A stretch of 64,000 nucleotides of DNA from Acidobacteriota bacterium (GCA_018268955.1 JAFDVO010000008.1:22988-86987); one strand, 5' to 3'; numbered from the stretch's first letter, positions 216 through 34,553 are shown. Made by a program: numbers and translations. The notes: generated by a model not told the origin, from the sequence alone.

Positions 216-1558
216 GCACGTCAGGGGATCGTCTCGCCGCCGACCTGTTGCGTCCGCTCAACCGCACGGGCGCGCTCTGGTACGTGTTCGTCGCCTTCCT
301 CGGGACGATCGTCGCCTGTGGCCTCTTCGCCTGGTTCTTCCAGATGTGGCGCGGCTTCGGCCTCACCGGCATCCGATGGCCGGTCTACTGGGGCTTCCTC
401 ATCACCGACTTCGTCTTCTGGATCGGCATCAGCCACGCGGGCACGCTCATCTCCGCGATCCTGCGCCTCGTGAACGCTGGCTGGCGTCGTCCGGTCACGC
501 GCTGCGCCGAGGTGATCACCGCCTTCGCCTTGATGATCGGCGGTCTCTTCCCGATCATCCATCTTGGCAAGCCGTGGCTGTTCTTCTGGCTCATGCCGTA
601 TCCGAACCAGCGGCTGATCTGGCCGAACTTCCGCTCGCCGCTGGTCTGGGACTTCTTCGCCATCTCCACGTATCTGACCGGCAGCCTGCTCTTCCTCTTC
701 CTGCCGATGATTCCCGACTTCGCGCTCGTGCGCGACCGCACGACCGGGGTGAAGAGGACGATCTACGGCGCGCTGGCGCTCGGCTGGCGCGGCACCACGC
801 ACCAGTGGCACCGGCTCGAAACGGCGATGCAGATCATGGCCATCGCCATCATCCCGGTGGCCGTCTCGGTCCACACGATCGTGTCGTTCGACTTCTCGAT
901 GGCGCCCGTGCCGATGTGGCACTCGACGATCTTCGGGCCGTACTTCGTCGCGGGGGCCATCTTCAGCGGCATCGCCGGCCTGATCATCGCCATGGCGACC
1001 CTGCGGAAGGTGCTCCACCTGCAGGATTACCTGCAGGACATCCACTTCGAAAACCTTGGCAAGCTCCTGCTGACCATGAGCCTGCTCTGGGGCTACTTCA
1101 CGTTCAACGAGCGGCTCACCACCTGGTACGGCAACGGCACCGCCGAGATCAACACCTTCAGGGTCACGCAGAGCGGCACGTTCTCCCCGTTGTTCTGGAC
1201 CATGGTGCTCGTCAACTTCGTGCTGCCGGTCATCATCCTGAGCATCCGCCGGCTGCGCACCGTGACGGGATGCGTGATCGCGTCGATTGGCGTGGTGATC
1301 GGCATGTGGCTCGAACGGTACCTGATCGTCGTGCCGTCCCTGGCGCATAAGTACCTGCCGTACAGCTGGGGCACCTACAGCCCGCGGCCGACCGAAATCG
1401 TCATCACCGCGGCCACGTTCGCGGCGATGACGCTGCTCTACACGCTGTTCGCCAAGTTCGTCCCAATTATCTCGATCTGGGAAATGCGTGCGGGTGAACG
1501 TCCTGAAGAGGACCTGGCTGCCGTCAGCGAGCAGCGCCTTGGGGAGAGCCACGCATGA
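212..1558 (+). CDS. NrfD/PsrC-family polytopic quinol-interacting membrane subunit (alternative complex III ActC-like)
   Basis: Lies in ORF 53-1558. ATG 212 was chosen because it overlaps the upstream stop (ATGA). Many hydrophobic helices and NrfD-like sequence ([29 protein letters not shown]). The stop overlaps the next ATG at 1555. Confidence 0.8.
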
Positions 1559-2058
1559 AGTCGGTGTACGCGCTTTACTCGAACGGGGACGCCGCACAGC
1601 GCGCCGTGAACAGCCTGCGCTCCGCCGGCTACGCGGACCACGACATCACGGTCATCAGCGCCGCACCGATGGAGGAATACGAGTTCAGCCACATCGGGCA
1701 CCACAGCTTCCAGTGGTACATCGCGTGCGGGGGCGCCCTGCTGGGCCTGCTCTTCAGCACCTGGCTCACCACCTTCGCCGAGAAGGACTGGCCGATCGAC
1801 GTCGGCAACATGCCGATCGTCGCGTGGTATCCCAACCTGATCGTGATCTTCGAGATGACGATGCTGGGGGCGATCCTGTCGACGGTGGTCACGCTCATCA
1901 TCACCGCCGGGCTCGGACGTCGCGTCCCGAAGCTCTACGACCCGGAAGTGACCAACGGCAAGATTCTCGTTGGCATCGCCCAACCGAAGGACACCTCCGG
2001 CGCGGATGTCGAACGCGCCCTCCTCGCGGCACCAGGCGCTCAGGTCCGGACCGTCTAG
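1555..2058 (+). CDS. DUF3341-type small membrane subunit (ActD-like)
   Basis: A 167-aa ORF translationally coupled to the NrfD-like gene (ATGA). A soluble N-terminal half ([26 protein letters not shown]) is followed by two hydrophobic helices, the usual architecture after ActC. Confidence 0.7.
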   Translation: MKSVYALYSNGDAAQRAVNSLRSAGYADHDITVISAAPMEEYEFSHIGHHSFQWYIACGGALLGLLFSTWLTTFAEKDWPIDVGNMPIVAWYPNLIVIFEMTMLGAILSTVVTLIITAGLGRRVPKLYDPEVTNGKILVGIAQPKDTSGADVERALLAAPGAQVRTV

Positions 2059-4250: not shown

Positions 4251-6575
4251 ATGAAGTCTGCTGTCCGCATGTGGAGGCGAGCGGGTCTGTCCCTGCTCGC
4301 CGTGCTCGTCCTCTGTTCGCCGGCGCTCGCCCAGCGCAGGCCTCCGCAGGGCTCGTCTTCCGCCCCGTCCTCAACTGAGGATCCGCCGCCGCCCGTTCCG
4401 CCGCAGGTGATCTCGCGCGGCGAGAACGGCCGCATGGTGATCCGTGCGACCCGCTTGTCGCAGCCGCTGCGCATCGACGGTCGGCTGGACGAGTCGGTGT
4501 ACGCCGACGTGCCGCCGATCACCGACTTCATCCAGACCGTGCCGGCAGAGGGGAAGCCCTCGACCGAGCGGACGGAGGCCTGGGTGATGTTCGATGACAA
4601 CTTCTTCTACGTGACGGGCCGCATGTACGAGGACGTGCCGCCGGAGGAGTGGACGGCGAACGAACTCCGGCGCGACACGAGCCAGCTGCGCCAGAACGAC
4701 ATGTTCGGCTTCCTCATCGACACGTTCCACGACCGCAGGAACGGCTTCAATTTCTACACGAACCCGCTCGGCGGCTTTGCCGACCAGATCGTCACGGACG
4801 AAGGCAACCCGAACGTCGATTGGAACCCGGTGTGGGAAGTGCGCACCGGCCGTTTCCCCGGTGGGTGGATCGCCGAGATGGCGATCCCGTTCAAGTCGAT
4901 CCGCTACAACTCGGGCACGAACCAGACGTGGGGTATCCAGCTGCGCCGCTCGATCCGCCGCAAGAACGAGTGGACGCACCTGACCTTCATCCCCGCATCA
5001 ACCGGCGGGTCCACCAGCATCTTCCGCGTGTCCCGGGCCGCGACCCTGATTGGGCTCGACCTGCCGGCCGCCAGCAAGAACATCGAGCTGAAGCCGTACG
5101 GCATCTCGAAGGTGTCGAGTGACGTGGGCAAGGGCATCTCGAACGATCTCGAGCCGAACGCCGGGCTCGACGCGAAGGTCGGCATCACCGCGAACCTCAC
5201 GGCCGACATCACGGTCAACACCGACTTCGCCCAGGTGGAGGTCGACGAGCAGCAGGTGAACCTCACGCGGTTCAACCTCTCGTTCCCGGAGAAGCGCGAT
5301 TTCTTCCTCGAGGGACGCGGTATCTTCGACTTCGGTCGTGGTGGTCCGACGAACAGCCTCGCGGGTGCGAGCGGCGCGAGCAACTCGCTCACCCCGAGCC
5401 TGTTCTACAGCCGCGCGATCGGCCTCAACGCCGGGCGCGTGATTCCGATCAGGGCCGGCGGACGCGTCACCGGCAAGGCGGGCAAATACAGCCTCGGCGT
5501 GGTGAACATCGAGACGGGGGAGGACTCGGTCTCGAGCACCCCGTCGACCAACTTCACCGTCACGCGCATCAAGCGCGACATCCTCCGCCGCAGCAGCATC
5601 GGCGCGATGGCGACCAACCGATCGAACTCCACGGTCGTTCCCGGCGCGTCGAACTTCGCGTACGGGGCCGACGCGTCGTTCTCGTTCTTCCAGAACCTGA
5701 GCATGGGCGGCTACTACTCGAAGTCCGAGACCGACGGCAAGGACACCGACAACCAGAGCTACCAGGGGCGGTTCGACTACGCGGCCGACCGGTACGGCCT
5801 GCAGCTGCAGTTCCTCGACGTCGGCCAGAACTACAACCCTGAGGTCGGCTTCGTGCGTCGCTACGGATTCGATCGCACGTACGCATCCGCCCGCTTCAGC
5901 CCCCGTCCCCGCAAGCGGTTCCGCGGCATCCGCCAGTTCACCTATCAGGCAAGCCTCGAGTACATCCAGAACGCGGCGGGGCAGCTCGAGACGCGCAACC
6001 AGACCGGCCGGTTCGCCCTCGAGCGGCAGAACAGCGACCTCTTCGTCGTCGAAGGCGGGACGAACTACGAACTGCTCGTGGCGCCGTTTGCGATTGCGCC
6101 CGGTGTCCGGATTCCGAAGGGCAGCTACCCGTTCAACGACGTGACGATGTCGTATCAGCTCGGGCAGCAGCGCCGGCTGAACGGAACCGTCTCCTACCAG
6201 ACCGGGCAGTTCTACAACGGGACGATCAACGCCTACGGGTTTACGGCCGCGCGGTACGCGATCCTGAAACAGTGGTCGGTTGAACCGAGCATCCAGATCA
6301 ACTCGGTGAAGCTGCCGGCGGGTGATTTCACGACCAAGCTGATTCGTGCCCGCACCGACTACGGGTTCAACCCGCGCATGTTCATCAGCGGCCTCGTCCA
6401 GTACTCCTCGACGGGCAACGTGTTCAGCAGCAACTTCCGCTTCCGCTGGGAGTACCGCCCCGGCAGCGAGCTGTTCGTCGTCTACACCGACGAACGCGAT
6501 ACGACGAAGCCTGGGTATCCCGATCTCAAGAACCGTGCGTTCGTGGTGAAGGTGAACCGGCTCTTCCGGTTCTGA
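4251..6575 (+). CDS. DUF5916 family protein with N-terminal CBM9-like domain, predicted outer-membrane beta-barrel (paralog 1 of 5)
   Basis: Lies in ORF 4062-6575. ATG 4251 gives the signal peptide MKSAVRMWRRAGLSLLAVLVLCSPALAQ. Contains the CBM9-like block WEVRTGRFPGGWIAEMAIPFKSIRY and the family block TDFAQVEVDEQQVNLTRFNLSFPEKRDFFLEGRGIF. C-terminus is NRLFRF (aromatic terminal residue). Confidence 0.85.
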   Translation: MKSAVRMWRRAGLSLLAVLVLCSPALAQRRPPQGSSSAPSSTEDPPPPVPPQVISRGENGRMVIRATRLSQPLRIDGRLDESVYADVPPITDFIQTVPAEGKPSTERTEAWVMFDDNFFYVTGRMYEDVPPEEWTANELRRDTSQLRQNDMFGFLIDTFHDRRNGFNFYTNPLGGFADQIVTDEGNPNVDWNPVWEVRTGRFPGGWIAEMAIPFKSIRYNSGTNQTWGIQLRRSIRRKNEWTHLTFIPASTGGSTSIFRVSRAATLIGLDLPAASKNIELKPYGISKVSSDVGKGISNDLEPNAGLDAKVGITANLTADITVNTDFAQVEVDEQQVNLTRFNLSFPEKRDFFLEGRGIFDFGRGGPTNSLAGASGASNSLTPSLFYSRAIGLNAGRVIPIRAGGRVTGKAGKYSLGVVNIETGEDSVSSTPSTNFTVTRIKRDILRRSSIGAMATNRSNSTVVPGASNFAYGADASFSFFQNLSMGGYYSKSETDGKDTDNQSYQGRFDYAADRYGLQLQFLDVGQNYNPEVGFVRRYGFDRTYASARFSPRPRKRFRGIRQFTYQASLEYIQNAAGQLETRNQTGRFALERQNSDLFVVEGGTNYELLVAPFAIAPGVRIPKGSYPFNDVTMSYQLGQQRRLNGTVSYQTGQFYNGTINAYGFTAARYAILKQWSVEPSIQINSVKLPAGDFTTKLIRARTDYGFNPRMFISGLVQYSSTGNVFSSNFRFRWEYRPGSELFVVYTDERDTTKPGYPDLKNRAFVVKVNRLFRF

Positions 6576-6580
6576 GGCCG

Positions 6581-8911
6581 ATGGCAAAGACGATGAGAGC
6601 TGTGTGGGCGGCCGTGGCAGCGGCCATGGCGATGAGTGCGGGCGCGGCGCAGGCGCAGGGACAGGTCCAGGCGACCGGCGCGGCGTCGGTCGGCGAACTG
6701 CCAATTCCTGTGGCCCCGAAGACGATCGTGCGCGAGAACGGCAAGGTGGTCGTGCGCGCGATCCGGCTGACCGAACCGCTGAAGGTCGATGGCCGCCTCG
6801 ACGAGTCCGTGTACGAGCAGAACGAACCGGCCGATGGGTTCATCCAGACCGTGCCGGCGAATGGGCAGCCCGTGTCCGAGCGGACCGAGGCGTGGGTGAT
6901 GTACGACGACAGGTACATCTACATTGCCGCGAAGCTGTACGACTCGGCCCCGCCAGAGAAGTGGGTGGCGAACGAGCTCCGGCGCGACACGAACCAGCTG
7001 CGTCAGAACGACATGTTCGGCGTGCTGCTCGACACGTTCCACGACCGCCGCAACGGCTACAACTTCTACACGAACCCGCTCGGGGGCTTTACCGACCAGC
7101 TCGTCACGGACGAAGGCAACCCGAACGCCGACTGGAACCCCGTGTGGGAAGTGCGGCCGGGCCGATTCGATGGCGGCTGGACCACGGAGATCGCGATCCC
7201 GTTCAAGTCGATCCGCTACATCGCCGGCAAGAACCAGGCGTGGGGCATCCAGATGCGACGGTCGATCCGCCGCAAGAACGAGTGGGCGCACCTGACCGCA
7301 CTGCCGGCGGCCAACGGTGGACCGAACAGCGTGTTCCGCATCTCGCAGGCGGCGACGCTGGTCGGGCTCGACCTGCCGCAGCAGAGCGCGAACATCGACG
7401 TGAAGCCCTACGGCATCGTCACCTCGACGACCGACCGGCTGAAAAACCCGCAGGTCAACAACGACCTGACCGGCAGCTACGGCGGCGACATCAAGTACGG
7501 CATCACCGCGAACCTGACGGCGGACGTGACCATCAAGACCGACTTCGCGCAGGTCGAGGTCGACGAGCAGCAGCTGAACCTCACGCGCTTCAGCATCCAG
7601 TTCCCAGAGAAGCGCGACTTCTTCCTCGAGGGGCGCGGCATCTTCGACTTCGGCAAGGCGGGCGCGAACAGCGGCGGCGCCACACTCGGCTTCGGCAGCG
7701 GCGGCAACAGCAGCCCGTCGACCGGCTCGCCGACGTTCTTCTACAGCCGGCGCATCGGGCTCGAAGCCGGGCGGGCCATTCCGATCCGCGCTGGCGGGCG
7801 CCTGACCGGCCGTGTCGGGAAGTACACGATCGGCGCGCTGAACCTGGAGACAGGCGACGAGCCGGTTGCCGCGACGCCGGCCACGAACTTCACGGTGTTC
7901 CGCCTGAAGCGCGACCTGTTCCGCCGCAGCAGCATCGGGACGATGATCACGAACCGCGATCATTCGACGCTGGTGAAGGGCGCCTCCAACCTCGCGTACG
8001 GCGTGGACGGCCTGTTCTCGTTCTTCAACGACCTGAACATGGGCGGGTACGTCGCACGCTCCGACGTGGAGGGACGGAACACGAACAACACGAGCTATCA
8101 GGGACGGCTCGACTGGGCGCCCGATCGTTACGGTGTGCGCGTGGACTACCTGAAGGTCGGCCAGAACTACAGCCCAGAGGTCGGCTTCACGAACCGCAGC
8201 AACTTCCGGCGCTCGTTCGCGTCGGCCCGCTTCAGCCCGCGTCCGAAGCGGAGCAAGCGCGTGCGCAAGTACACGTCGGAAGGCACCTACGAGTACCTGG
8301 TGACCGACACGACCGGGCGCCTCGAATCGCGCGCGGCTGCCGGACGCTTCCTGATCGAGAAGCAGAGCAGCGACCTGATCAGCGTCGTCGCCACGAACCG
8401 CTACGAGTACCTCGCGCGGCCCTTCACGGTCGCCCAGGGCGTGACGATTCCGGTCGGCGGCTACACGTTCTCGGACCTCACGGCCACCTACGGGTTCGGC
8501 CAGCAGCGCCGGCTCTCGGGCAGCCTCGCCTATCAGGTGGGGCATTTCTACAACGGCGACATCAACGCCGTGAGCTTCAGCACGGGACGGTTCGCGATCC
8601 GCAAGAACTGGTCGCTCGAGCCCACCTTCACCGTCAACCACGTGTCGTTGCCTGCCGGCACGTTCACGAACGCGGTGATTGTGGCGCGCACGGACTACGG
8701 GTTCAATCCACGACGCTTCGTGAGCGCACTCGTGCAGTACTCGTCGGCGACGCACGTGTTCAGCTCGAACTTCCGCTTCCGCTGGGAGTATCAGCCCGGC
8801 AGCGAGCTGTTCGTCGTCTACACCGACGAGCGCGATACGACGAGGCCCGGGTACCCCGACCTGAGGAACCGTGCGTTCGTCGTGAAGGTGAACCGCCTGT
8901 TCCGCTTCTGA
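6581..8911 (+). CDS. DUF5916 family protein with CBM9-like domain (paralog 2)
   Basis: Starts 5 nt after paralog 1. Signal peptide MAKTMRAVWAAVAAAMAMSAGAAQAQ. Carries the same conserved blocks as paralog 1. The last ~150 nt are nearly identical at nucleotide level to paralog 1 and end in NRLFRF. Confidence 0.9.
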   Translation: MAKTMRAVWAAVAAAMAMSAGAAQAQGQVQATGAASVGELPIPVAPKTIVRENGKVVVRAIRLTEPLKVDGRLDESVYEQNEPADGFIQTVPANGQPVSERTEAWVMYDDRYIYIAAKLYDSAPPEKWVANELRRDTNQLRQNDMFGVLLDTFHDRRNGYNFYTNPLGGFTDQLVTDEGNPNADWNPVWEVRPGRFDGGWTTEIAIPFKSIRYIAGKNQAWGIQMRRSIRRKNEWAHLTALPAANGGPNSVFRISQAATLVGLDLPQQSANIDVKPYGIVTSTTDRLKNPQVNNDLTGSYGGDIKYGITANLTADVTIKTDFAQVEVDEQQLNLTRFSIQFPEKRDFFLEGRGIFDFGKAGANSGGATLGFGSGGNSSPSTGSPTFFYSRRIGLEAGRAIPIRAGGRLTGRVGKYTIGALNLETGDEPVAATPATNFTVFRLKRDLFRRSSIGTMITNRDHSTLVKGASNLAYGVDGLFSFFNDLNMGGYVARSDVEGRNTNNTSYQGRLDWAPDRYGVRVDYLKVGQNYSPEVGFTNRSNFRRSFASARFSPRPKRSKRVRKYTSEGTYEYLVTDTTGRLESRAAAGRFLIEKQSSDLISVVATNRYEYLARPFTVAQGVTIPVGGYTFSDLTATYGFGQQRRLSGSLAYQVGHFYNGDINAVSFSTGRFAIRKNWSLEPTFTVNHVSLPAGTFTNAVIVARTDYGFNPRRFVSALVQYSSATHVFSSNFRFRWEYQPGSELFVVYTDERDTTRPGYPDLRNRAFVVKVNRLFRF

Positions 8912-26967: not shown

Positions 26968-28686
26968 TTGGCGCGTTGCTCGCGCTATGCTCGCGTGGAG
27001 GTGCCCGTCTCCCAGAGTTCTTCCGGTCCCCTGAGCACGGCCGAGCGGCTCGCCGTCTCACTGCTGGCCCCATTCGCGACCGTCGTTGTCGCATCCTACG
27101 TTGCGGATCGGATCGGCTTGCGGTTCCTGCCGGTGCCGATGCTCGCGCTCGCCGTGCTCTCTGTCGTCGCGGCCGCTGCCGTCGTCCGTCCGGCCCTTCG
27201 AACTCGGACCGACGTCGCGCTGTTCCTCGCAGCGGTCCTCGGCGTCTTCGGCTGGCTGCTGTGGCTTGCCTCGCCAACGCTGTTGCCGCTCAGCACCGGA
27301 CCCGACCTCACGCACCATCTCATCCTGATCCGCTTCATCGAGGAGCACTGGCGCCTCGTGCACGACCCGTCGCTCGAGCGGTACCTCGGCGAGATGGCGC
27401 AGTACACGCCTGGCAGCCATGTGCTTTCGGCGCTTGCCGGAGCCTGGTCCGGCACTGACGGGCTGCGGGCGCTCCACACGGTGCAGGCCGCGACGGTCGC
27501 ACTGAAGTCAGGCTTCCTGCTCCTGACCGGCCTGCGCCTGCTTCCTCGAACCGCGCCCAGGCCTCTGGCACTGGTCGGCGTGGTGCTGCTGTTCGCGTCT
27601 CCTCAGTACTTCGTGCGCGGCTTCACCGAATTCGGCTTCGTCGCGCAGGTCGTCGCCGAGCTCTTCGTGGTCGCGATGTGGTGGGCCAGCGCCGCCTGGT
27701 GGCAGACGCCCTCGACCGCCCCTTTGCTGGTGTTTGCCATGGCGGGGTCGGCGACATTCCTCACGTGGCCGGTCTACGTTGGGGCACCCGCGCTTGCTGG
27801 AGGCGTGCTGGTGATGGCGCAGCGGCGGATGTCAGTGGCCTCCCGCGTTCGATGCCTGCTGCTGGCGTTCACGCCGATCGCGGTGGTGGCGGCCCTGTAC
27901 ATCCTCGGGCGTCTGGGATGGCTGCAACTGGCGGGCACTGGAGGCACGGCACCGTGGCCATCCATGTCCGCGTACGGTCCCGTGCTCGTCGCACTCGCGA
28001 CGCTCGGAGTCCTGGTTGGTCTGGTGCGCACGCGTGGGCTCGCAACCCTCGTGTTCCTGGCCTCTGCCCTTCTGCAGGCTGGTGCCTTCTTCATCCTTGC
28101 CCAACGCGCGGGAGCGCCTCAGCCCTACATGGCGTTGAAGATGGGGTACCTGCTCCTGTGGCCGATGGCCGCCTGCGCGGTGCTGGCGTGCGGAGCAGCC
28201 TGGGACGCCATGGCGAGCCGCCTCGGTGCCGGCGGCGGTGAACGTCGGGCGAGCGCGGTGGTGGCGTGGGCTGTGGTCATCGCGCTCGGCGTGATCGTTG
28301 GACGACCGCTCCTGCGCAATCCTCGCCTGCTGCATCCGTTGCCGCCGGCCACGTCGCTGCCGCTGTACGATGCGGGGCGCTGGGCTCGCGCGCACGTGCC
28401 CGCCCCATGCGTCGAGTATCTCGTCGGCGACGATGAGACGGCGTACTGGCTGCATCTCGCCGTGCTGGGCAACCCACGCATGTCCCCCCGCACGGGCGAC
28501 AACCGGACGTACGAGCCGACCGATGCGGTGGTTCGCTGGCTCACGCCAGGCGGTCTCCCGTACGCCATTGCGGACCTGCCCGCGCTGCCGAGGGGGGTGC
28601 GCGACGAACTCGACGTCATGCAGGCGTTCGGCACCGCCGCCGTCGTCCGGCGGCGAGGTCCGACCTCGTGTGACCCGTCGCGGTAG
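26968..28686 (+). CDS. Polytopic membrane protein of unknown family (GT-C-like glycosyltransferase is a guess)
   Basis: 572-aa ORF starting 18 nt after paralog 4 (TTG start; GTG 26995 is an alternative). More than 10 hydrophobic helices and a soluble C-terminal tail. Followed by a GT2 gene. Confidence 0.6.
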   Translation: MARCSRYARVEVPVSQSSSGPLSTAERLAVSLLAPFATVVVASYVADRIGLRFLPVPMLALAVLSVVAAAAVVRPALRTRTDVALFLAAVLGVFGWLLWLASPTLLPLSTGPDLTHHLILIRFIEEHWRLVHDPSLERYLGEMAQYTPGSHVLSALAGAWSGTDGLRALHTVQAATVALKSGFLLLTGLRLLPRTAPRPLALVGVVLLFASPQYFVRGFTEFGFVAQVVAELFVVAMWWASAAWWQTPSTAPLLVFAMAGSATFLTWPVYVGAPALAGGVLVMAQRRMSVASRVRCLLLAFTPIAVVAALYILGRLGWLQLAGTGGTAPWPSMSAYGPVLVALATLGVLVGLVRTRGLATLVFLASALLQAGAFFILAQRAGAPQPYMALKMGYLLLWPMAACAVLACGAAWDAMASRLGAGGGERRASAVVAWAVVIALGVIVGRPLLRNPRLLHPLPPATSLPLYDAGRWARAHVPAPCVEYLVGDDETAYWLHLAVLGNPRMSPRTGDNRTYEPTDAVVRWLTPGGLPYAIADLPALPRGVRDELDVMQAFGTAAVVRRRGPTSCDPSR

Positions 28687-28723: not shown

Positions 28724-29428
28724 GTGAACCCGCTGCTCTCGATCATCGTCCCGGTCTACAACGAAGAAGCGACCATCGGCGCCGTCCTGGATCGGCTGCT
28801 CGCCATCGGCTTTCCTGTCCCGATCGAAGTGATCGCGGTGAACGACGGCTCCCGGGATGGGACGGCGGCGGCACTGGACGCCGCGGCCGCACGGAGTCCG
28901 CTGATCACGGCCGTTCACCTCGAACGGAACGGCGGCAAGGGCATGGCGCTGCGTACCGGATTCGCGCGCACGCGGGGCTCGATCGTGGCGATCCAGGACG
29001 CGGATCTCGAGCTCGATCCGGCGCAGTTGCTCACGTTGATCGAGCCGATCCTCGCCGGGCGCGCTGACGTCGTCTACGGGTCGCGCTTCCTGAACGATGC
29101 CTCGCACGTGCCGATCGTCTCGCGGCTGGGCAACGCAGGGCTGACCTTCCTGACGAACCTCCTGTACGGCACCAAGCTCACCGACATGGAGACCTGCTAC
29201 AAGATCATGCGCGGCGACATCGCGCGAGGCCTCCGGCTCACCGCGAACCGGTTCGACATCGAACCGGAGATCACCGTGAACCTGCTCAAGAGCGGCGTGC
29301 GCATCATCGAACTGCCCGTCAGCTTCTCGCCACGCTCGCGGCAGGCTGGCAAGAAGATCCGCTGGCGCGACGGCTGGCACGCCGTGGACCTGCTCGTGCG
29401 GCATCGGTTCGGAGGCAGCGGCTCCTGA
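28724..29428 (+). CDS. Family 2 glycosyltransferase (polyprenyl-phosphate sugar synthase-like)
   Basis: GTG start. Contains LSIIVPVYNEEATIG, VNDGSRDGT and IQDADLE motifs. Confidence 0.85.
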   Translation: MNPLLSIIVPVYNEEATIGAVLDRLLAIGFPVPIEVIAVNDGSRDGTAAALDAAAARSPLITAVHLERNGGKGMALRTGFARTRGSIVAIQDADLELDPAQLLTLIEPILAGRADVVYGSRFLNDASHVPIVSRLGNAGLTFLTNLLYGTKLTDMETCYKIMRGDIARGLRLTANRFDIEPEITVNLLKSGVRIIELPVSFSPRSRQAGKKIRWRDGWHAVDLLVRHRFGGSGS

Positions 29429-29444
29429 CTGGCGGCGACACGGC

Positions 29445-29645
29445 AACGCAGGAACGCAAGAACGCAGAAACGCAAAAACGCAGGAACGCAGGAACGCAGG
29501 AACGCAACGCAAGAACGCAGGAACGCAAGAACGCAAGACAGCGCGCTGGAAGATTCACGCAGTCACGCACGAGCGATTGCAGCATTCGTGCGCTCCTGTG
29601 AGCGTGCATTGTTGCATTCCTGCATTCCCGCATTCCCGCATTCCC
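29445..29645. repeat. ~200-nt imperfect palindromic element whose arms are octamer arrays
   Basis: Left arm 29445-29538 has twelve units of AACGCARR/ACGCARGA. A central bulged hairpin lies around 29556-29604. Right arm 29606-29645 has five units of GCATTCCY, whose reverse complement (RGGAATGC) matches the left unit at 6-7 of 8 positions. The element fills the gap between convergent stops at 29428 and 29651. Confidence 0.85.
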
Positions 29646-29650
29646 CCGGG

Positions 29651-30067
29651 TCAGTGCTTCGCTGGGATCTTCAATACCTGGCCCACCTTGATCTTGTCGG
29701 GGTCTGAGAGCTGGTCGCGGTTCGCGTTGAAAACCTCCATGTAGGCGCCAGCACTGCCGAGGAACTCCTTGGCGATCTTGCTGAGCGTGTCGCCGCTCTT
29801 CACGGTGTACGTCTGTGGTGCAGTCTGCGCGGCCGCTTCACTCTGGGCTGCCGCAGCGGGAGCGGTGTTCAACGGGCGGATGTCGGCGATGATGTCGGTG
29901 CGCCAGCTCGGGACGGTCTTGATGGCGTCCCAGATCCGGTTTGCCTCCTCCTGGTTCTGCACCGTCCCGTGGAAATGGAGCTTGCCGTCACGCTCTTCGG
30001 CCGCTCCCTGCATGTGCAGGCTCTTCGCCACCTGAATGGCCGCCCCGTACGTATCTCGCAATCCCAT
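29651..30067 (-). CDS. BON-like plus LysM peptidoglycan-binding protein (YgaU-like)
   Basis: Lies in ORF 29651-30268; ATG 30067 was chosen (MGLRDTYGAAIQVAK...). C-terminal LysM: YTVKSGDTLSKIAKEFLGSAGAYMEVFNANRDQLSDPDKIKVGQVLKIP. Confidence 0.8.
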   Translation of the reverse strand: MGLRDTYGAAIQVAKSLHMQGAAEERDGKLHFHGTVQNQEEANRIWDAIKTVPSWRTDIIADIRPLNTAPAAAAQSEAAAQTAPQTYTVKSGDTLSKIAKEFLGSAGAYMEVFNANRDQLSDPDKIKVGQVLKIPAKH

Positions 30068-30231
30068 AAGCACCTCGTCTGGAAGTCGTGTGTCGACCAC
30101 GGATCTGCAAGCGACAGGCCTGAGTTGCGCTGTCCGCCGCACGTGACACGCGCTCGCGCACTCTCGAGTGGACAGGCGCCGCCAAGTCGTTGAATTCACA
30201 CGGGCGCGGCACTGGCAGCGGCGTTGCTGAG

Positions 30232-31011
30232 ATGCACACTCCTCCGCACCCGACCCTGTCCAGCCCACTCGATGTGGTGTTCGTCGAGCCCTTCGGAGGA
30301 AGTCGCGATCACCTCAGGCAACTGCTCGAGTTCGAAGGGCTTCGGATCGGGACGTGCTCGGGCGATCAACTCCTGCGCGCCGCCCCAAATCACCCAGTGC
30401 GCGTCCTCATCCTGGACGATGCATCGCTGGGCGAACGGACCGTGCCGGTCGTCGACGCGTGCACCACCGGTGCGCGTGTCCGCCTGCTGTTCCTCGCGCT
30501 CGTGCCTGCTGGCGCAGACGCCCGTGGCATCGAACTGGTCGAACGCGGAGTCGATGGGTTCCTGACGGTTCCGTGTGGGGGGCGCGAGTTCGTTGCGCGG
30601 GTTCGCGCCATGCTTCGGCGGCTCGACCGCGTGGAGCGCGCGCGCTCGCACGCGGAGCGGGTCGAGGAGAACGGCGGCGACCGCGTCGTCCGCGTACGTC
30701 AGCTCGTCGTGGACCCGGCGCGGCGGCGTGTCCGCGCCGCCGACCACGAGTTGCGCCTGACGGAGCAGGAGTTCCAGCTCCTGCATGTGTTCGTGTCGTC
30801 GCCGGGCCGCGTGTTCAATCGGCAGGCACTCCTCGATGCCGTCTGGGGACGCGACACGTTCGTCACGCTTCGCAGTGTGGACGCGCTCGTGAAACGGCTG
30901 CGGCACCAACTCCACCCCGCGCTTCCGCCGGATGTTCTGGAGACTGTCAGAGGCGTCGGTTACCGGCTCAACGAAACACGCCTCGGTGCAATCACGTCCG
31001 CGGAATGCTGA
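30232..31011 (+). CDS. OmpR/PhoB-type winged-helix regulator with a degenerate (pseudo-)receiver domain
   Basis: Lies in ORF 30190-31011 (TTG start; ATG 30232 preferred). C-terminal trans_reg_C: LRLTEQEFQLLHVFVSSPGRVFNRQALLDAVWG...VRGVGYRL. In the receiver, VVFVEPFGG replaces the acidic pair, VLILDD is retained, and the conserved T/S and K positions read LALV and LTVPC. Confidence 0.75.
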   Translation: MHTPPHPTLSSPLDVVFVEPFGGSRDHLRQLLEFEGLRIGTCSGDQLLRAAPNHPVRVLILDDASLGERTVPVVDACTTGARVRLLFLALVPAGADARGIELVERGVDGFLTVPCGGREFVARVRAMLRRLDRVERARSHAERVEENGGDRVVRVRQLVVDPARRRVRAADHELRLTEQEFQLLHVFVSSPGRVFNRQALLDAVWGRDTFVTLRSVDALVKRLRHQLHPALPPDVLETVRGVGYRLNETRLGAITSAEC

Positions 31012-31079
31012 GACACGAAGTCACAGATTTTTCACCGCGCCATCACACAGGTTCAACCGGCGACCGGTTCAATGGGAGC

Positions 31080-31514
31080 ATGTTGAGTTCGCGTGTGGCG
31101 GTCACGCTTGCGTGCGTCGCCACCTTCGCTGCCTCCGCCTGCGGCGGCACTGCATCATCGACCACATCGCCGTCCACGGTGGCGGCGGACGCCACGATCA
31201 ACGAAAGCTTCGGCGCCACCATCGACGTCGGCGGCGGCGTCTTCTACTCCTTCTCCATGCAGAGTTACGGCAACGTGGCGGTCACGCTGACCGCCGTCAC
31301 CGGGACCGACCTGCCAGACGACATCACGCTCGGTCTCGGCATTGGTCGGCCAAGCGGCACGTCGTGCACGACATCGTTGTCGACATCGGCCACGCCGGGC
31401 GCGACGGCACAGTTGACCGGCGTCTACGGGCCCGGTGTGTTCTGTGTCCGGGTGTACGACGCCGGCACGCTGAGCGCTCCCATCCAGTTCACGGCCTCGG
31501 TGGCGCACTCATGA
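31080..31514 (+). CDS. Small lipoprotein, paralog A (144 aa), unknown family
   Basis: Tail of ORF 30354-31514. GGGAG lies 2 nt before ATG 31080. Signal plus lipobox AASAC, an S/T-rich linker, then a ~100-aa domain with two conserved Cys. Confidence 0.7.
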   Translation: MLSSRVAVTLACVATFAASACGGTASSTTSPSTVAADATINESFGATIDVGGGVFYSFSMQSYGNVAVTLTAVTGTDLPDDITLGLGIGRPSGTSCTTSLSTSATPGATAQLTGVYGPGVFCVRVYDAGTLSAPIQFTASVAHS

Positions 31515-31951
31515 CGGCGCGGAATCGAGGCGTTGTCGCCGTGCTGCTCTCGTTGGTGGGGCTCGCCACCGGAGCGTGCGGAGGCTCGTCCACGACGTCC
31601 CCCTCCACGACGACAGCCACGGCATCCACGGAGCTCTTCACCGGGAACCTCTCGCCCGCCGGAACGGCTTTCTACTCCTTCACCGTGACGACTGCCGGCT
31701 CGGTTGCCGTCACGCTAGCCAGCCTGTCGTCCTCCACGATCGGCCCGGCCGTTCCGGTGACGCTGAAGGTCGGCGTCGGTGTGCCGAGCGGGTTCGGCTG
31801 CGCGACGGCCAGCGATGTGGACACATCGCCACGGCTGACGGCGCAGCTCACGGTATCTGGGGCGAAGGACAACATCTACTGCGTGAACCTGGCGGACCGC
31901 GGCGCGCTGCGATCGGACGTCCGGTTCGTCATCCGGATCGTGCACACCTGA
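31511..31951 (+). CDS. Small lipoprotein, paralog B (146 aa)
   Basis: Tail of ORF 30932-31951. ATG 31511 overlaps the paralog A stop (ATGA). Lipobox ATGAC. Same conserved pattern as paralog A. Confidence 0.7.
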   Translation: MTARNRGVVAVLLSLVGLATGACGGSSTTSPSTTTATASTELFTGNLSPAGTAFYSFTVTTAGSVAVTLASLSSSTIGPAVPVTLKVGVGVPSGFGCATASDVDTSPRLTAQLTVSGAKDNIYCVNLADRGALRSDVRFVIRIVHT

Positions 31952-31952
31952 T

Positions 31953-32360
31953 ATGAGAGCGCCGCTTCCCGTGCTTGCTGTCCTGCTGTGCACCCTCTGC
32001 GGCTGCAGCACCGGTACCACCACGTCACCGACGACAACGGTCACGGCACCGACGACCGACACGTTCGCGAGCCTGCTGGTGAGAGGGGGCAGCACGTCGC
32101 GCGCGTTCACGACGTCCACAGCGGGAACGGTGCGGGTGACCCTCACCGCGTTTGGGAACGGCGGCGTTCAGGCGGGAGTGGCGGTGGGGGTTCCTGCCGG
32201 AAGCGGACCCTGCAGCCCTGCGGTGTCGGTCGTGACCGCGCCAGGCGGGTCGCCGCAGATTACGACGTCGGCCGACGCGGGCAGCTATTGCGTGCAGGTG
32301 TTCGACCCGGGAACGCTTGCGGCGGACACGCCGTTCACGATCACGATCGAACATCCCTGA
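31953..32360 (+). CDS. Small lipoprotein, paralog C (135 aa)
   Basis: ATG lies 1 nt after the paralog B stop. Lipobox LCGC, T/S/P-rich linker, same conserved pattern. Confidence 0.7.
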   Translation: MRAPLPVLAVLLCTLCGCSTGTTTSPTTTVTAPTTDTFASLLVRGGSTSRAFTTSTAGTVRVTLTAFGNGGVQAGVAVGVPAGSGPCSPAVSVVTAPGGSPQITTSADAGSYCVQVFDPGTLAADTPFTITIEHP

Positions 32361-32369
32361 CGCCGGTGT

Positions 32370-32390
32370 GTCGCTCCGTCGCGGAGCGAC
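32370..32390. terminator. 9-bp perfect hairpin between convergent genes (possible bidirectional terminator)
   Basis: gtcgctccg - tcg - cggagcgac, 10 nt after the stop at 32360 and 8 nt from the stop at 32398. No U-tract. Confidence 0.45.
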
Positions 32391-32397
32391 GATCATC

Positions 32398-32679
32398 CTA
32401 CTTGGCGGCGTCGGCCTTGCGCCGCGCGGCCCAGTACTTCTTCATGCGGTCGGACACCGCCTTTCGGTCAGCCGCGGTCCACCCGCGCTTCGATACTGCG
32501 GGAGCGCCCTGCTTCGCGGAAGCCGCCTGCCGTGCCGGCGTGCGCTTCGCGCCCGCGGCTCCCCGGCGCAGGTCAGGGAACGTCTTGAAGATCGACTCGA
32601 GCTCGTTCTGCAGTTCCTGCACGCGTGCCACGGCGCCCGCCCGAGCGAGCCGAAGCAATTCTTCACGGGAGATAGCCAC
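32398..32679 (-). CDS. Small basic protein (93 aa) with a helical N-terminus and Lys/Arg-rich C-terminus; unknown family
   Basis: Lies in ORF 32398-32796. GTG 32679 is preceded by GGAGGA at about 7 nt. Sequence: (M)AISREELLRLARAGAVARVQELQNELESIF...RGWTAADRKAVSDRMKKYWAARRKADAAK. Confidence 0.6.
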   Translation of the reverse strand: MAISREELLRLARAGAVARVQELQNELESIFKTFPDLRRGAAGAKRTPARQAASAKQGAPAVSKRGWTAADRKAVSDRMKKYWAARRKADAAK

Positions 32680-32804
32680 GTTTGATCCTCCTGAGCTGAG
32701 TGTACCTGAGAAAACGCATGCGCTTCCGGGCCCGCGTATCAAAAGTGCGCCGTGAGCCGGGTCGATTGCATCGGCGCGCGCGACGTGCAGTAGCATCTTG
32801 GGCC

Positions 32805-34361
32805 ATGCGGAGACTCATTCAGCTCGCCTCCACGACCACAGTGGCGATTGTCGGCGCCTGTGGAGTCCATGTGTTCACGCAGGGCACCACGTCCACGCTT
32901 GCGGATTGCACCGTTGCGAGCCTGCAGGCGAAGGCGCCGGCGGGGACGACGATCACGGGTGCGAAGGTGGTCGACGGTTCCGATCGAGTGCCGCGGCATT
33001 GCCAGGTGGATGGGCATGCTGCGACTCCTGGCAATGAGGTCAACTTCCGGCTTGGCTTCCCCGAGCGCTGGAACGGCAAGTACTACTTCGTAGGCGTCGG
33101 CGGCCTCGGCGGCAGCATCGGCTCACTGAACAAGGGGCTCGAGCGCGGCTACGCATCCGCATCCACCGATACCGGACACAGCGCGGACGATCAGAGCTGG
33201 GGCTCGAACCGCGCGAAGGAAATTGATTACGGCCATCGCGGGACGCACGCGACCGCCGTGGCGGGGAAGGCGCTCGCAGGCGCGTTCTACGGGCGCGCGC
33301 CGCAGCACGCCTATTTCGAAGGCTGCTCCAACGGCGGCCGGCAGGCGCTCATGGAAGTGCAGCGCTATCCGGAGGATTTCGACGGGATCATCGGCGGCGA
33401 TCCTGCCACCGGCACCCCGATGCAGGTGGGACGGGTGCTCGTCTATCAGAAGATGCTCGCGAAGCCTGAGAACTTCCTGCCCGCAGAGAAGATCGAGCTG
33501 CTCTCGAAGGCGACGCTGGCCGCGTGCGACAAGGCGGACGGCCTCAAGGATGGACTCGTCACCGATCCGCGTCGGTGCTCGTTCAAGCCCGAGTCGCTGA
33601 AGTGCAGCGGGGCCGATGGACCGAACTGCCTGAACGACGGACAGCTCGCAGTCGTGAAACAGATTTACGAGGGAGCCTCCATCAACGGCGAACCGTACGC
33701 GTGGGGGTTCCCGGTCGGGCACGAGGGCAGTGCCACGGGGTGGCGCGCGTGGATCTCGGGTCCGGAGGATCCGACGACGCAGGCGGACGGCACGCTCGCC
33801 TATACGGGGCGGCGGCTGCCGAGCGGGTACGGGCTCGCCGAGTCCAACATGCGATTCCTCGCGTTGGAGAACGACGATCCGGCTTTCAACTGGCGTGTCT
33901 TCAGGTTCCCGCAGGATCTCGCCCGGATGAAGACCATGAGCGACATCCTCAGCCCGCTCGATCCCGATCTGCGTCCGTTCAAGAACCGCGGCGGGAAGCT
34001 GCTCCTGTACCACGGATGGTCGGATCCGGCGATCAGCGCGTACGGGACCGTCGGCTATTACGACCGCGTGCTGAAGACCGTCGGCGGCCAGCAGCAGATG
34101 GACGTGTTCGCGAAGCTGTATCTCGTCCCTGGCATGCATCACTGCAGTGGCGGCCCAGGCCCGAACGAGTTCGACATGCTCACCGCTCTGGAGAACTGGG
34201 TGGAGAAGGGGCAGTCGCCGGGACCGGTGGTCGCCACACACCGCGAGAACAACGCGGTCACCCGCACGCGGCCGCTGTGTCCGCATCCGCAGGTCGCCCG
34301 CTACAGGGGGACGGGGAGCATCGATGACGCCGCGAACTTCACGTGCGAGGTGCCGCGGTAG
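32805..34361 (+). CDS. Tannase/feruloyl-esterase family alpha/beta hydrolase, secreted
   Basis: Lies in ORF 32700-34361; ATG 32805 gives MRRLIQLASTTTVAIVGACG. Nucleophile motif FEGCSNGGRQALMEVQRYPEDFDGIIGGDPA. Confidence 0.85.
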   Translation: MRRLIQLASTTTVAIVGACGVHVFTQGTTSTLADCTVASLQAKAPAGTTITGAKVVDGSDRVPRHCQVDGHAATPGNEVNFRLGFPERWNGKYYFVGVGGLGGSIGSLNKGLERGYASASTDTGHSADDQSWGSNRAKEIDYGHRGTHATAVAGKALAGAFYGRAPQHAYFEGCSNGGRQALMEVQRYPEDFDGIIGGDPATGTPMQVGRVLVYQKMLAKPENFLPAEKIELLSKATLAACDKADGLKDGLVTDPRRCSFKPESLKCSGADGPNCLNDGQLAVVKQIYEGASINGEPYAWGFPVGHEGSATGWRAWISGPEDPTTQADGTLAYTGRRLPSGYGLAESNMRFLALENDDPAFNWRVFRFPQDLARMKTMSDILSPLDPDLRPFKNRGGKLLLYHGWSDPAISAYGTVGYYDRVLKTVGGQQQMDVFAKLYLVPGMHHCSGGPGPNEFDMLTALENWVEKGQSPGPVVATHRENNAVTRTRPLCPHPQVARYRGTGSIDDAANFTCEVPR

Positions 34362-34464: not shown

Positions 34465-34553
34465 TGGTGCCGGAGGTGGGAATCGAACCCACACGAGGAG
34501 TAAACCTCACGGGATTTTGAGTCCCGCGCGTCTGCCAGTTTCACCACTCCGGC
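34465..34553 (-). tRNA. tRNA-Leu (anticodon CAA), with long variable arm and encoded CCA
   Basis: The reverse complement is GCCGGAGTGGTGAAACTGGCAGACGCGCGGGACTCAAAATCCCGTGAGGTTTACTCCTCGTGTGGGTTCGATTCCCACCTCCGGCACCA. The acceptor stem pairs GCCGGAG with CTCCGGC, the anticodon loop is CTCAAAA, the T-loop is GGTTCGATTCC, and the extra arm is class II. Confidence 0.95.

Follow-up and report, generated by a model that had tools for sequence, protein, structure and literature searches.

How an OmpR/PhoB-type regulator could be controlled once its receiver domain has lost residues of phosphotransfer, and which genes it might control, is the question raised by a locus in a 64,000-nucleotide stretch of DNA from an Acidobacteriota bacterium (GCA_018268955.1, JAFDVO010000008.1:22988-86987), which we call the window and whose numbering is used throughout. 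Its plus strand carries a gene for an atypical OmpR/PhoB regulator (30232-31011, 259 aa as annotated, in a reading frame open from 30190), followed by the genes of three paralogous lipoproteins, lipo1 (31080-31514, 144 aa), lipo2 (31511-31951, 146 aa) and lipo3 (31953-32360, 135 aa). An earlier, sequence-only reading had described the three genes as translationally coupled, and the ATGA overlap of lipo1 with lipo2 and the 1-nt gap between lipo2 and lipo3 were confirmed. Our analysis points, at roughly even confidence, to a sigma-54-dependent operon of a Vicinamibacterales-like soil acidobacterium in which a pseudo-receiver regulator would control the lipoprotein genes. The most informative elements are a sigma-54 control region and a set of pho-box-like repeats, neither of which had been noticed in the sequence-only reading. 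The G+C content around the locus is 66-70%, and all of its closest relatives belong to Vicinamibacterales. The regulator protein is 100% identical to the NCBI protein P0034 of the metagenome-assembled genome GCA_046331445.1 ('Acidobacteria bacterium', contig JAXLQY010000005.1), and the genes called on that contig agree with our gene reading of the window.

Candidate control sequences flanking the regulator gene

An alignment of the regulator's upstream DNA in 12 regulator-containing loci shows four colinear blocks that are conserved in all 12. The block closest to the gene is a sigma-54-type promoter, TGGCAGCGGCGTTGCT, at 30213-30228 on the plus strand (TGGCAG-CGGCG-TTGCT, with TGGCA as the -24 and TTGCT as the -12 element), which has no other exact match in the window. 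Across the alignment it reads TGGCAG-N5-TTGCTGGCAC, the GG and GC being 10 nt apart as is canonical for sigma-54 elements, and it is kept in every one of the 12 loci. At a fixed distance of 18-19 nt 5' of the -24 element lies a block resembling the consensus for integration host factor (IHF), equally kept in 12 of 12 loci. It occupies 30184-30195 on the minus strand, the plus strand being (T)AAGTYGTTGA, and its reverse complement TCAACRACTT(A/G) matches WATCAANNNNTTR at eight of the nine specified positions when compared by eye; we infer that it may be an IHF site. A TTGAAT/TTGACT hexamer inside this block was considered as a sigma-70 -35 element and rejected, as no -10-like hexamer follows at 16-18 nt downstream.

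The two remaining blocks lie further upstream. A GGACAG/TGACAG block (30170-30175, plus strand), located between the IHF-like block and a palindrome, has GACA invariant in 12 of 12 loci and also in related loci that lack the regulator. The palindrome itself, TGTC-N10-GACA (30131-30148, plus strand), has invariant GTC and GACA columns in the 12 regulator-containing loci and is centred about 100 nt 5' of the predicted sigma-54 start site, the distance at which enhancer-binding proteins usually bind. Its single exact match in the window is about the chance expectation, so that its weight comes from conservation across loci and not from uniqueness in the window. An enhancer-binding protein may use it as upstream activating sequence. 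The upstream GACAG blocks were also considered as autoregulatory half-sites of the regulator, and this was rejected because their 24-25 nt spacing is not helical-periodic and they also occur in regulator-less loci. Scanning 29400-33000 gave no match to a sigma-70 promoter or an intrinsic terminator, including no terminator-like site between the regulator and lipo1. A literature search located no publications on sigma-54 in Vicinamibacter.

The second conserved region is the spacer between the regulator and lipo1, which is 68 bp long in the window (31012-31079) and 51-91 bp among the aligned loci. It contains three direct repeats (31019-31048, plus strand), (a/t)GTCAC, TTTCAC and CATCAC, whose TCAC cores at 31021-31024, 31032-31035 and 31043-31046 follow each other with an exact 11-bp period; the consensus is TGTCACAGATT-TTTCACCGnGCC-ATCACAC. 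All 12 aligned spacers contain the repeats; the adjacent regulator is confirmed for 11, and for one (L011) the upstream sequence is too short to tell. One locus (L005) has two repeats only, and another (L009) a duplicated version. A weight-matrix scan found the tandem TCAC site once in the 64-kb window. The TGTCA-like half-site and the 11-bp period of these direct repeats are those of the Escherichia coli pho box. Their arrangement marks them as a candidate operator and fits binding by the adjacent regulator, with canonical PhoB as the obvious rival. Closer to lipo1, 6-7 nt 5' of its ATG, an AT-rich hexamer TT(C/G)AAT (31068-31073, plus strand) has invariant T, T, A, A and T columns at fixed spacing in 12 loci, and could be either the -10 element of a leaderless transcript or a translation-initiation element.

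The pseudo-receiver and its occurrence among related loci

The regulator combines a well-preserved output domain with a degenerate receiver. The winged-helix domain spans about residues 152-248 (nt 30685-30975) and matches Trans_reg_C (PF00486) at 3.3e-23, with a score of 82 bits where the cutoff is 26.2, bearing out the earlier description of a good output domain. Among solved structures, the effector domain of E. coli PhoB comes closest to it (1GXP, 1e-19), and most of the residues that contact DNA in PhoB are retained. Likewise, the best NCBIfam model for the protein is PhoB (TIGR02154, 2.5e-33), with 115 bits against an equivalog cutoff of 296. The N-terminal half, containing the pseudo-receiver (about residues 15-131, nt 30274-30624), reached only E=0.19 against Response_reg (PF00072; 12.4 bits against a cutoff of 30.2), and its receiver homology was detectable in full-length alignments only.

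To follow the five catalytic residues of canonical receivers (the DD-D-T-K quintet), the regulator was aligned with E. coli PhoB (whose key positions check out), 17 ortholog-group sequences and relatives with a recognisable receiver. The first acidic residue, Glu9 in PhoB, corresponds to Glu19 and is Glu in 17 of 17 ortholog-group sequences; the second, Asp10 in PhoB, is replaced by Pro here and in 14 of the 17. At the acceptor site (PhoB Asp53) the regulator has Asp62 and 14 of the 17 have Asn. The Thr site (PhoB Thr83) is Val91, with Val in 16 of 17, and the Lys site (PhoB Lys105) is Val113 and variable among the 17. The receiver has thus lost three of the five residues. The sequence-only reading had seen VVFVEPFGG in place of the acidic pair, no Thr or Ser at beta-4 (LALV) and no Lys at beta-5 (LTVPC); the last two observations hold, whereas of the acidic pair only the second residue is replaced. 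In this protein, careful alignment thus brings back Glu19 at the first acidic site and Asp62 as the acceptor, and leaves the second acidic residue, Thr and Lys lost.

No gene of a HisKA or HATPase family was found among those called within ±10 kb of the regulator, and a crude motif scan detected no H-box or GAFTGA motif in the 64-kb window. The regulator is accordingly an orphan, with no partner histidine kinase in its operon or neighbourhood over that distance, as had been noted from the sequence. About 65 ortholog clusters of the regulator were found, all without PF00072 and all confined to one Vicinamibacterales clade. Column conservation is 0.83 for the alpha4-beta5-alpha5 face, 0.82 for the DNA-binding domain and 0.45-0.52 for beta2-alpha3. 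The receiver has a dN/dS of about 0.35 and the DNA-binding domain one of about 0.15, both rough values with saturated dS. This pattern of substitution indicates that the receiver domain is not decaying. Because the alpha4-beta5-alpha5 face, which is the dimer interface in OmpR/PhoB proteins, is as conserved as the DNA-binding domain, the regulator may well be a constitutive dimer. A pseudo-receiver without a nearby kinase makes phosphorylation-independent control the best reading, which agrees with what had been proposed. The receiver falls under the definition of a pseudo-receiver in an atypical response regulator (PMC12632262), and most orthologs additionally lack the aspartate. As judged from these alignments, the regulator is a further member of the known atypical orphan OmpR/PhoB class.

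We compared the related loci (designated by L numbers) for the association of the regulator with the lipoprotein genes. Fourteen loci have the regulator directly 5' of the lipoprotein genes (the window, L001-L003, L005, L008-L010, L012, L013, L015, L016, L020 and L026), and three of three regulator orthologs that were looked up independently are also followed by lipoprotein genes. A locus search with a narrow alignment among GTDB species representatives returned three loci. Four loci with enough upstream DNA have no regulator (L006, L007, L014 and L017), and three of these, L006, L014 and L017, carry the lipoprotein triplet; L006 and L014 contain the LysM gene and three lipoprotein genes. L018 appears likewise regulator-less, with 160 nt upstream of lipo1 covered, and no regulator, LysM, family 2 glycosyltransferase (GT2) or tannase gene was found within 6 kb in L007. 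The wider lipoprotein family (about 700-1500 clusters) was found in other contexts. Co-conservation of regulator and triplet, which the sequence-only reading would have expected elsewhere, was therefore seen in 14 loci and is broken in three.

The control region recurs in loci without the regulator. In L006, L014 and L018 a four-block region with TGGCC-N6-TTGCT lies about 95 nt 5' of lipo1, and each of its columns has a counterpart 5' of the regulator in the other loci; the TGTC-N10-GACA palindrome is also present in L006 and L014. Since the colinear region stands directly 5' of lipo1 in these loci, the sigma-54 region is probably the primary input of the unit, and since the triplet occurs without the regulator, the latter would be an optional layer that can be inserted or deleted rather than a fixed partner. 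Judged from gene order, the link between regulator and triplet is real within one clade and optional. Between the LysM gene and the sigma-54 region, L014 also contains a 181-aa gene of no recognised family (1093-1638, plus strand), whose product we would guess to be a PNPOx-like split barrel.

The lipoprotein family

All three products are predicted lipoproteins: lipo1, lipo2 and lipo3 match a PS51257-type lipobox expression, with the lipobox Cys at residues 21, 23 and 18, respectively. Ser, Thr and Pro make up 50-75% of the 20 residues following this Cys, and a domain of about 105 aa follows the tether, so the architecture of lipobox, S/T/P-rich linker and domain given in the sequence-only reading stands. 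The three proteins are 33-40% identical to each other and have in common two Cys, one Asp, one Phe and a penultimate His, and lipo3 is a distinct subtype with SRAF replacing FYSF. Over 36 family members the invariant residues are two Cys, Asp, two Phe, two Gly, Leu and the penultimate His; the two conserved Cys had been recognised from the window.

The domain belongs to no named family, as had been suspected. None of 18 diverse family members matched a Pfam family (Pfam 2025), none of lipo1, lipo2 and lipo3 matched an NCBIfam family (NCBIfam 2026), and the family profile found nothing significant among PDB sequences (best E 0.1). The cluster records of ten distant members read 'hypothetical protein' only and carry no taxonomy. 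The previously suggested loose likeness to pre-peptidase C-terminal (PPC) domains was substantiated at the level of fold. PF04151 matched the lipoproteins below threshold (E 0.094, 14 bits against a cutoff of 25.9) and was sub-threshold in 4 of 18 diverse members, with a best E of 0.0011. The AlphaFold2 model of lipo2 (pLDDT about 95 in the domain) is a jelly roll of eight strands, for which the three best matches in Foldseek are to the C-terminal jelly roll of the subtilase Tk-SP (3afg, 9ues; E 2e-4 to 5e-4, the best being 3afg at 2e-4), followed by KP-43 and SubHal. With normalisation to all 146 aa, the TM-score against Tk-SP is 0.54 (107 columns). Close behind the subtilase domains come the PliG inhibitors, together with GOLD domains and carbohydrate-binding modules (CBMs), and a Foldseek search of a viral library gave generic jelly rolls only. 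Because other jelly rolls such as PliG and GOLD score similarly, the PPC likeness is one of fold only, and the modelled domain is a generic PPC-like jelly roll that carries no functional assignment. The lipoproteins share eight strands with PPC (PF04151) and the subtilase C-domains (Tk-SP 3afg, KP-43 1wmd), together with weak first-strand sequence matches (collagenase and Tk-SP at E 0.2-2). Unlike PPC domains, they stand alone instead of being appended to proteases, and have their own invariant Cys pair, Asp and terminal His. The domain therefore represents an undescribed family with a common fold.

The size of this family depended on the search. A word-indexed search found 33 lipoprotein clusters, whereas an exhaustive profile search with a domain-only alignment returned 1540 representatives at E<=1e-3, 696 at <=1e-10 and 65 at <=1e-30, counted as clusters at 50% identity; the E<=1e-3 set includes some spurious repeat proteins. 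Three giant hits (P0213, P0282 and P0300) were rejected as relatives, being DUF7507/DUF11/SprB repeat proteins with additive partial matches. Most members are single-domain lipoproteins of about 140 aa or two-domain lipoproteins of about 250 aa, and all nameable contigs carrying the family are from Acidobacteriota. A strict lipobox was found in 151 of 181 representatives and a His-x ending in 152 of 181. In 89 of 170 representatives the tether has a [ST][ST]P[ST] motif that lies 4-8 residues C-terminal to the Cys, where shuffling of the tethers would lead one to expect about 24; this TTSP(S/T)-like motif could be a glycosylation or sorting signal. In the window, the motif is encoded at 31155-31175, 31589-31609 and 32019-32039.

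The three paralogs may act together. Across loci, lipo1 orthologs share 50-67% identity with one another and 30-40% with the other paralogs, and each paralog forms its own ortholog line. The junction geometry of lipo1, lipo2 and lipo3 recurs in L002, L003, L004 and L010. Among 77 two-domain representatives, 60 have a lipo2-like followed by a lipo3-like domain and 72 a lipo3-like C-terminal domain, so that the domain order of the fusions is the gene order of the window, and the fusion genes are preceded by a single-domain gene of 130-141 aa with an overlapping junction. Because paralogs 2 and 3 are fused in many relatives, as in Rosetta-stone proteins, and because the genes are translationally coupled, lipo1, lipo2 and lipo3 most likely assemble as a hetero-oligomer. 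In L007 ('uncultured Acidobacteriota'), six family domains are encoded in tandem at 5025-7532, in single-domain genes and two-domain fusions of 255 aa and about 250 aa (the latter within a 315-aa maximal open reading frame).

Proposed control logic, gene neighbourhood and known systems

Taken together, these elements suggest the following control logic. An enhancer-binding protein would bind TGTC-N10-GACA and, helped by an IHF-like bend, activate the -24/-12 promoter. The first product would be a PhoB-like winged-helix regulator whose receiver no longer catalyses phosphotransfer; having kept its alpha4-beta5-alpha5 face, it would probably dimerise constitutively, its activity being set by the amount made. 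It would then bind the three TCAC repeats in the spacer and raise or prolong transcription of the coupled lipoprotein genes, adding a feed-forward layer on top of sigma-54 read-through. Each lipoprotein would be lipid-anchored through its lipobox Cys, on a tether of 15-20 S/T/P-rich residues with a TTSP(S/T)-like motif, and would end in a disulfide-capable PPC-like jelly roll with the invariant Asp and penultimate His, and the hetero-oligomer most likely binds some envelope ligand.

Several observations weigh against this scheme. The distance from the -12 element to the regulator ATG at 30232 is 3 nt in the window, against 26-35 nt in the 11 other loci. Because the -12 element ends so close to the annotated ATG, the true start may be an in-frame GTG at 30274 or 30277; the annotated start, which is also that of the NCBI record, may thus be wrong, or the promoter may work differently in this genome. 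We found neither an enhancer-binding protein gene nor rpoN in the 64-kb window, looking among called genes within ±10 kb and with the GAFTGA scan. Measured against E. coli promoters, the TT(C/G)AAT hexamer makes a poor -10 element, and the hetero-oligomer is deduced from the fusions and translational coupling alone. The further points against the scheme are those from which alternatives start. Glu19 and Asp62 are kept, the repeats resemble ordinary pho boxes that could belong to a canonical PhoB, and L017 carries the two-repeat form with no regulator within 3.4 kb. Finally, the regulator loci form one clade with shared synteny of the family C glycosyltransferase (GT-C), GT2, LysM, regulator, three lipoprotein and tannase genes, and for this reason adjacency alone is weak evidence.

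That shared synteny of the whole neighbourhood is the starting point of a reading to which we give a limited though real chance, namely that regulator and lipoproteins are neighbours by descent, with the lipoprotein genes read through from the sigma-54 promoter and the regulator controlling other genes, itself, or the divergent LysM or PMT_2 gene. As loci without the regulator show, the sigma-54 region can drive the lipoprotein genes directly, and operator-like GACAG and GTGACA half-sites are also present upstream of the regulator. Against this stand the conserved, periodic repeats that correlate with the regulator and lie exactly in the spacer between it and lipo1, and the occurrence of lipoprotein genes after the regulator in every ortholog context examined. 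The same repeats are interpreted differently if they are ordinary pho boxes of a canonical, phosphorylatable PhoB, which would place the lipoprotein genes in the phosphate-starvation regulon and let the pseudo-receiver paralog compete or act elsewhere. The half-site and period shared with E. coli, the PhoB-like DNA-binding domain and the L017 arrangement are in its favour; we nevertheless consider it unlikely, because all loci in which an adjacent regulator is confirmed have the repeats, because L006, L014 and L018, which keep the sigma-54 region, lack them, and because the window yielded neither a second site of this kind nor pst or pho genes.

Two further alternatives concern the proteins themselves. 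The regulator could still be a phosphorylation switch, with a distant kinase or a small phosphodonor acting on Asp62, as the presence of this residue and Glu19 would allow. We regard this as very unlikely: Pro at the second, metal-binding acidic position and Val at the Thr and Lys sites speak against it, as do the missing kinase genes within ±10 kb and the predominance of Asn at the acceptor site in orthologs that are yet under purifying selection. The lipoproteins, for their part, could be envelope-anchored inhibitors or partners of secreted hydrolases, of the PliG or chagasin type, in place of ligand-binding scaffolds. This would accord with Foldseek matches to PliG lysozyme inhibitors (4dzg at 8e-4, 4dy5 and 4dy3), a weak Inhibitor_I42 match (0.005) in one family member, and frequent hydrolase neighbours (tannase, beta-lactamase-family, GDSL lipase and alpha/beta hydrolase). 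However, the structural matches are generic jelly-roll matches with TM-scores of 0.4-0.5 and 11-17% identity, equalled by GOLD domains, CBMs and phage proteins, and the neighbouring hydrolases vary by context, so we give the inhibitor reading little credence. The sigma-54-dependent operon with a regulatory pseudo-receiver layer remains our preferred interpretation. What stands out is its inferred control logic together with natural variants lacking the regulator. The locus offers a testable answer for one pseudo-receiver family, in which control would act via synthesis from a sigma-54 promoter and through a recognisable operator, and relatives with the same promoter and target genes and no regulator layer provide a built-in comparison. 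Its present value is that of a well-delimited experimental target rather than a solved system.

The genes around the operon add further candidates. Divergent from the regulator lies a BON/LysM gene (29651-30067, minus strand), which the sequence-only reading had tentatively included in an envelope module. The LysM assignment is sound (2.9e-12; LysM/Kbp-like NF008399, 1e-21) and the BON assignment weak (E=0.11). Because no signal peptide is visible in the protein and it resembles E. coli Kbp/YgaU, which is cytoplasmic, the product is probably cytoplasmic as well, and its membership in an envelope module is doubtful. The LysM gene is adjacent in most related loci, and in L005 and L010 a PMT_2 gene stands between it and the promoter. 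A PMT_2 GT-C gene is found immediately 5' of the sigma-54 region in L001, L005, L010 (3218-4768, minus strand), L012, L013, L020 and also L006, and is missing from the window. In an unrelated context (L034/L035), a PMT_2-TPR gene (L034 4790-6784, minus strand) is convergent with a lipo2-3 fusion.

Further upstream in the window, a gene for a 561-aa polytopic membrane protein (27001-28686, plus strand) is preceded by a DUF5916 protein gene (upstream of 27001, plus strand) and directly followed by a gene for a GT2 of 234 aa (28724-29428, plus strand). The membrane protein had no Pfam, NCBIfam or PDB-sequence match, and its family of about 530 clusters is annotated throughout as 'hypothetical'. 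Its AlphaFold2 model (pLDDT 85) found GT-C glycosyltransferases in all of its top 22 Foldseek matches (AftA, ArnT, STT3, DPY19, PglB, Pmt and Emb), and by this predicted fold it is an unannotated GT-C family. The GT2 resembles the polyprenol-phosphate-sugar synthases AglJ, PpgS and ArnC, and the two genes together have the composition of a lipid-linked sugar donor and transferase pair. O-glycosylation of the lipoprotein tethers by this pair would be a reasonable proposal by analogy; lipid A or a polysaccharide would be equally plausible targets, as with ArnC/ArnT or Gtr systems.

Downstream of lipo3, a conserved 93-aa gene is convergent to it (32398-32679, minus strand); its product, 54-68% identical in L001, L005, L006, L008, L013 and L014, has a coiled-coil-like N terminus and a basic C terminus and no family match. 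It is followed by a tannase-family esterase gene (about 32805-34361, plus strand), whose start is probably near 32805 because the listed long open reading frame, from 32700, overlaps the 93-aa gene. A tRNA-Leu(CAA) gene (34465-34553, minus strand) then separates the tannase gene from a CarD gene (downstream of the tRNA gene, plus strand). In two unrelated contexts, the lipoprotein arrays are flanked by genes for secreted proteins of about 300 aa that are homologous to each other and match no Pfam family (L007 3436-4311, minus strand; L032 3274-4197, plus strand), and a 345-aa protein with an outer-membrane-barrel-like C terminus (...FFIRF) is encoded between two family members in L032 (4833-5870, plus strand).

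Joining these neighbours to the operon, we put forward a bolder and rather improbable extension: an Acidobacteriota-specific hetero-oligomeric lipoprotein complex, made of three paralogs or of paralog 1 and a 2-3 fusion, whose TTSP(S/T) tethers would be O-glycosylated by the neighbouring GT2/GT-C pair and whose synthesis would be gated by a cascade from sigma-54 to the pseudo-receiver, with the amount of regulator replacing phosphorylation. If true, it would define a dedicated set of protein-glycosylation targets in Acidobacteria, and the natural comparison with and without the regulator would show what a pseudo-receiver layer adds. Acidobacteriota are a dominant and poorly studied soil phylum, in which the lipoprotein family, definable by its lipobox, TTSP tether, Cys pair and terminal His, comprises hundreds of clusters at 50% identity.

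Compared with known systems, the upstream region resembles the sigma-54 promoters of nifH and glnAp2 in its canonical spacing of the -24 GG and -12 GC, the palindrome about 100 nt upstream and the IHF-consensus-like block between them, the IHF match here having been made by eye. The palindrome differs from the NifA site, being TGT-N12-ACA instead of TGT-N10-ACA. The regulator and its candidate operator resemble E. coli PhoB and the pho box in the effector domain and in TGTCA-like direct repeats of 11-bp period; they differ in the degenerate receiver, the score far below the equivalog cutoff and three repeats in place of two, and no PhoR or pst genes were seen among the called genes within ±10 kb. 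The mycobacterial Ppm1/Pmt pair is a comparable glycosylation system to the one proposed for the tethers. In streptococci, GT2 and GT-C enzymes (GtrB/PgtC2, Pgf) glycosylate Ser/Thr-rich disordered regions, including a lipoprotein tether (PMC12041528); here, GT2 and GT-C genes likewise adjoin genes of lipoproteins with S/T-rich tethers, the link being positional only, unlike in the streptococcal case.

The closest counterparts are the atypical OmpR/PhoB regulators with pseudo-receivers, Helicobacter pylori HP1043/HsrA, Chlamydia ChxR, Campylobacter jejuni CosR and Clostridioides difficile CmrT, the class defined in PMC12632262. Of these, HP1043 is described as having a 'highly degenerate receiver domain' (PMC8345958), and ChxR as a constitutive dimer (PMC3960148). 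According to the 2025 minireview, the on/off mechanisms of bacterial pseudo-receivers 'remain a mystery' (PMC12632262). The regulator shares with these proteins a winged-helix output and a receiver-like domain without quintet residues, in a class whose members are usually orphan and phosphorylation-independent. No close sequence relationship to them was found, its group of about 65 clusters occurring in the Vicinamibacterales clade only, and it differs from them, in a comparison made by sequence, in that its gene stands behind a conserved sigma-54 promoter and is followed by a pho-box-like candidate operator.

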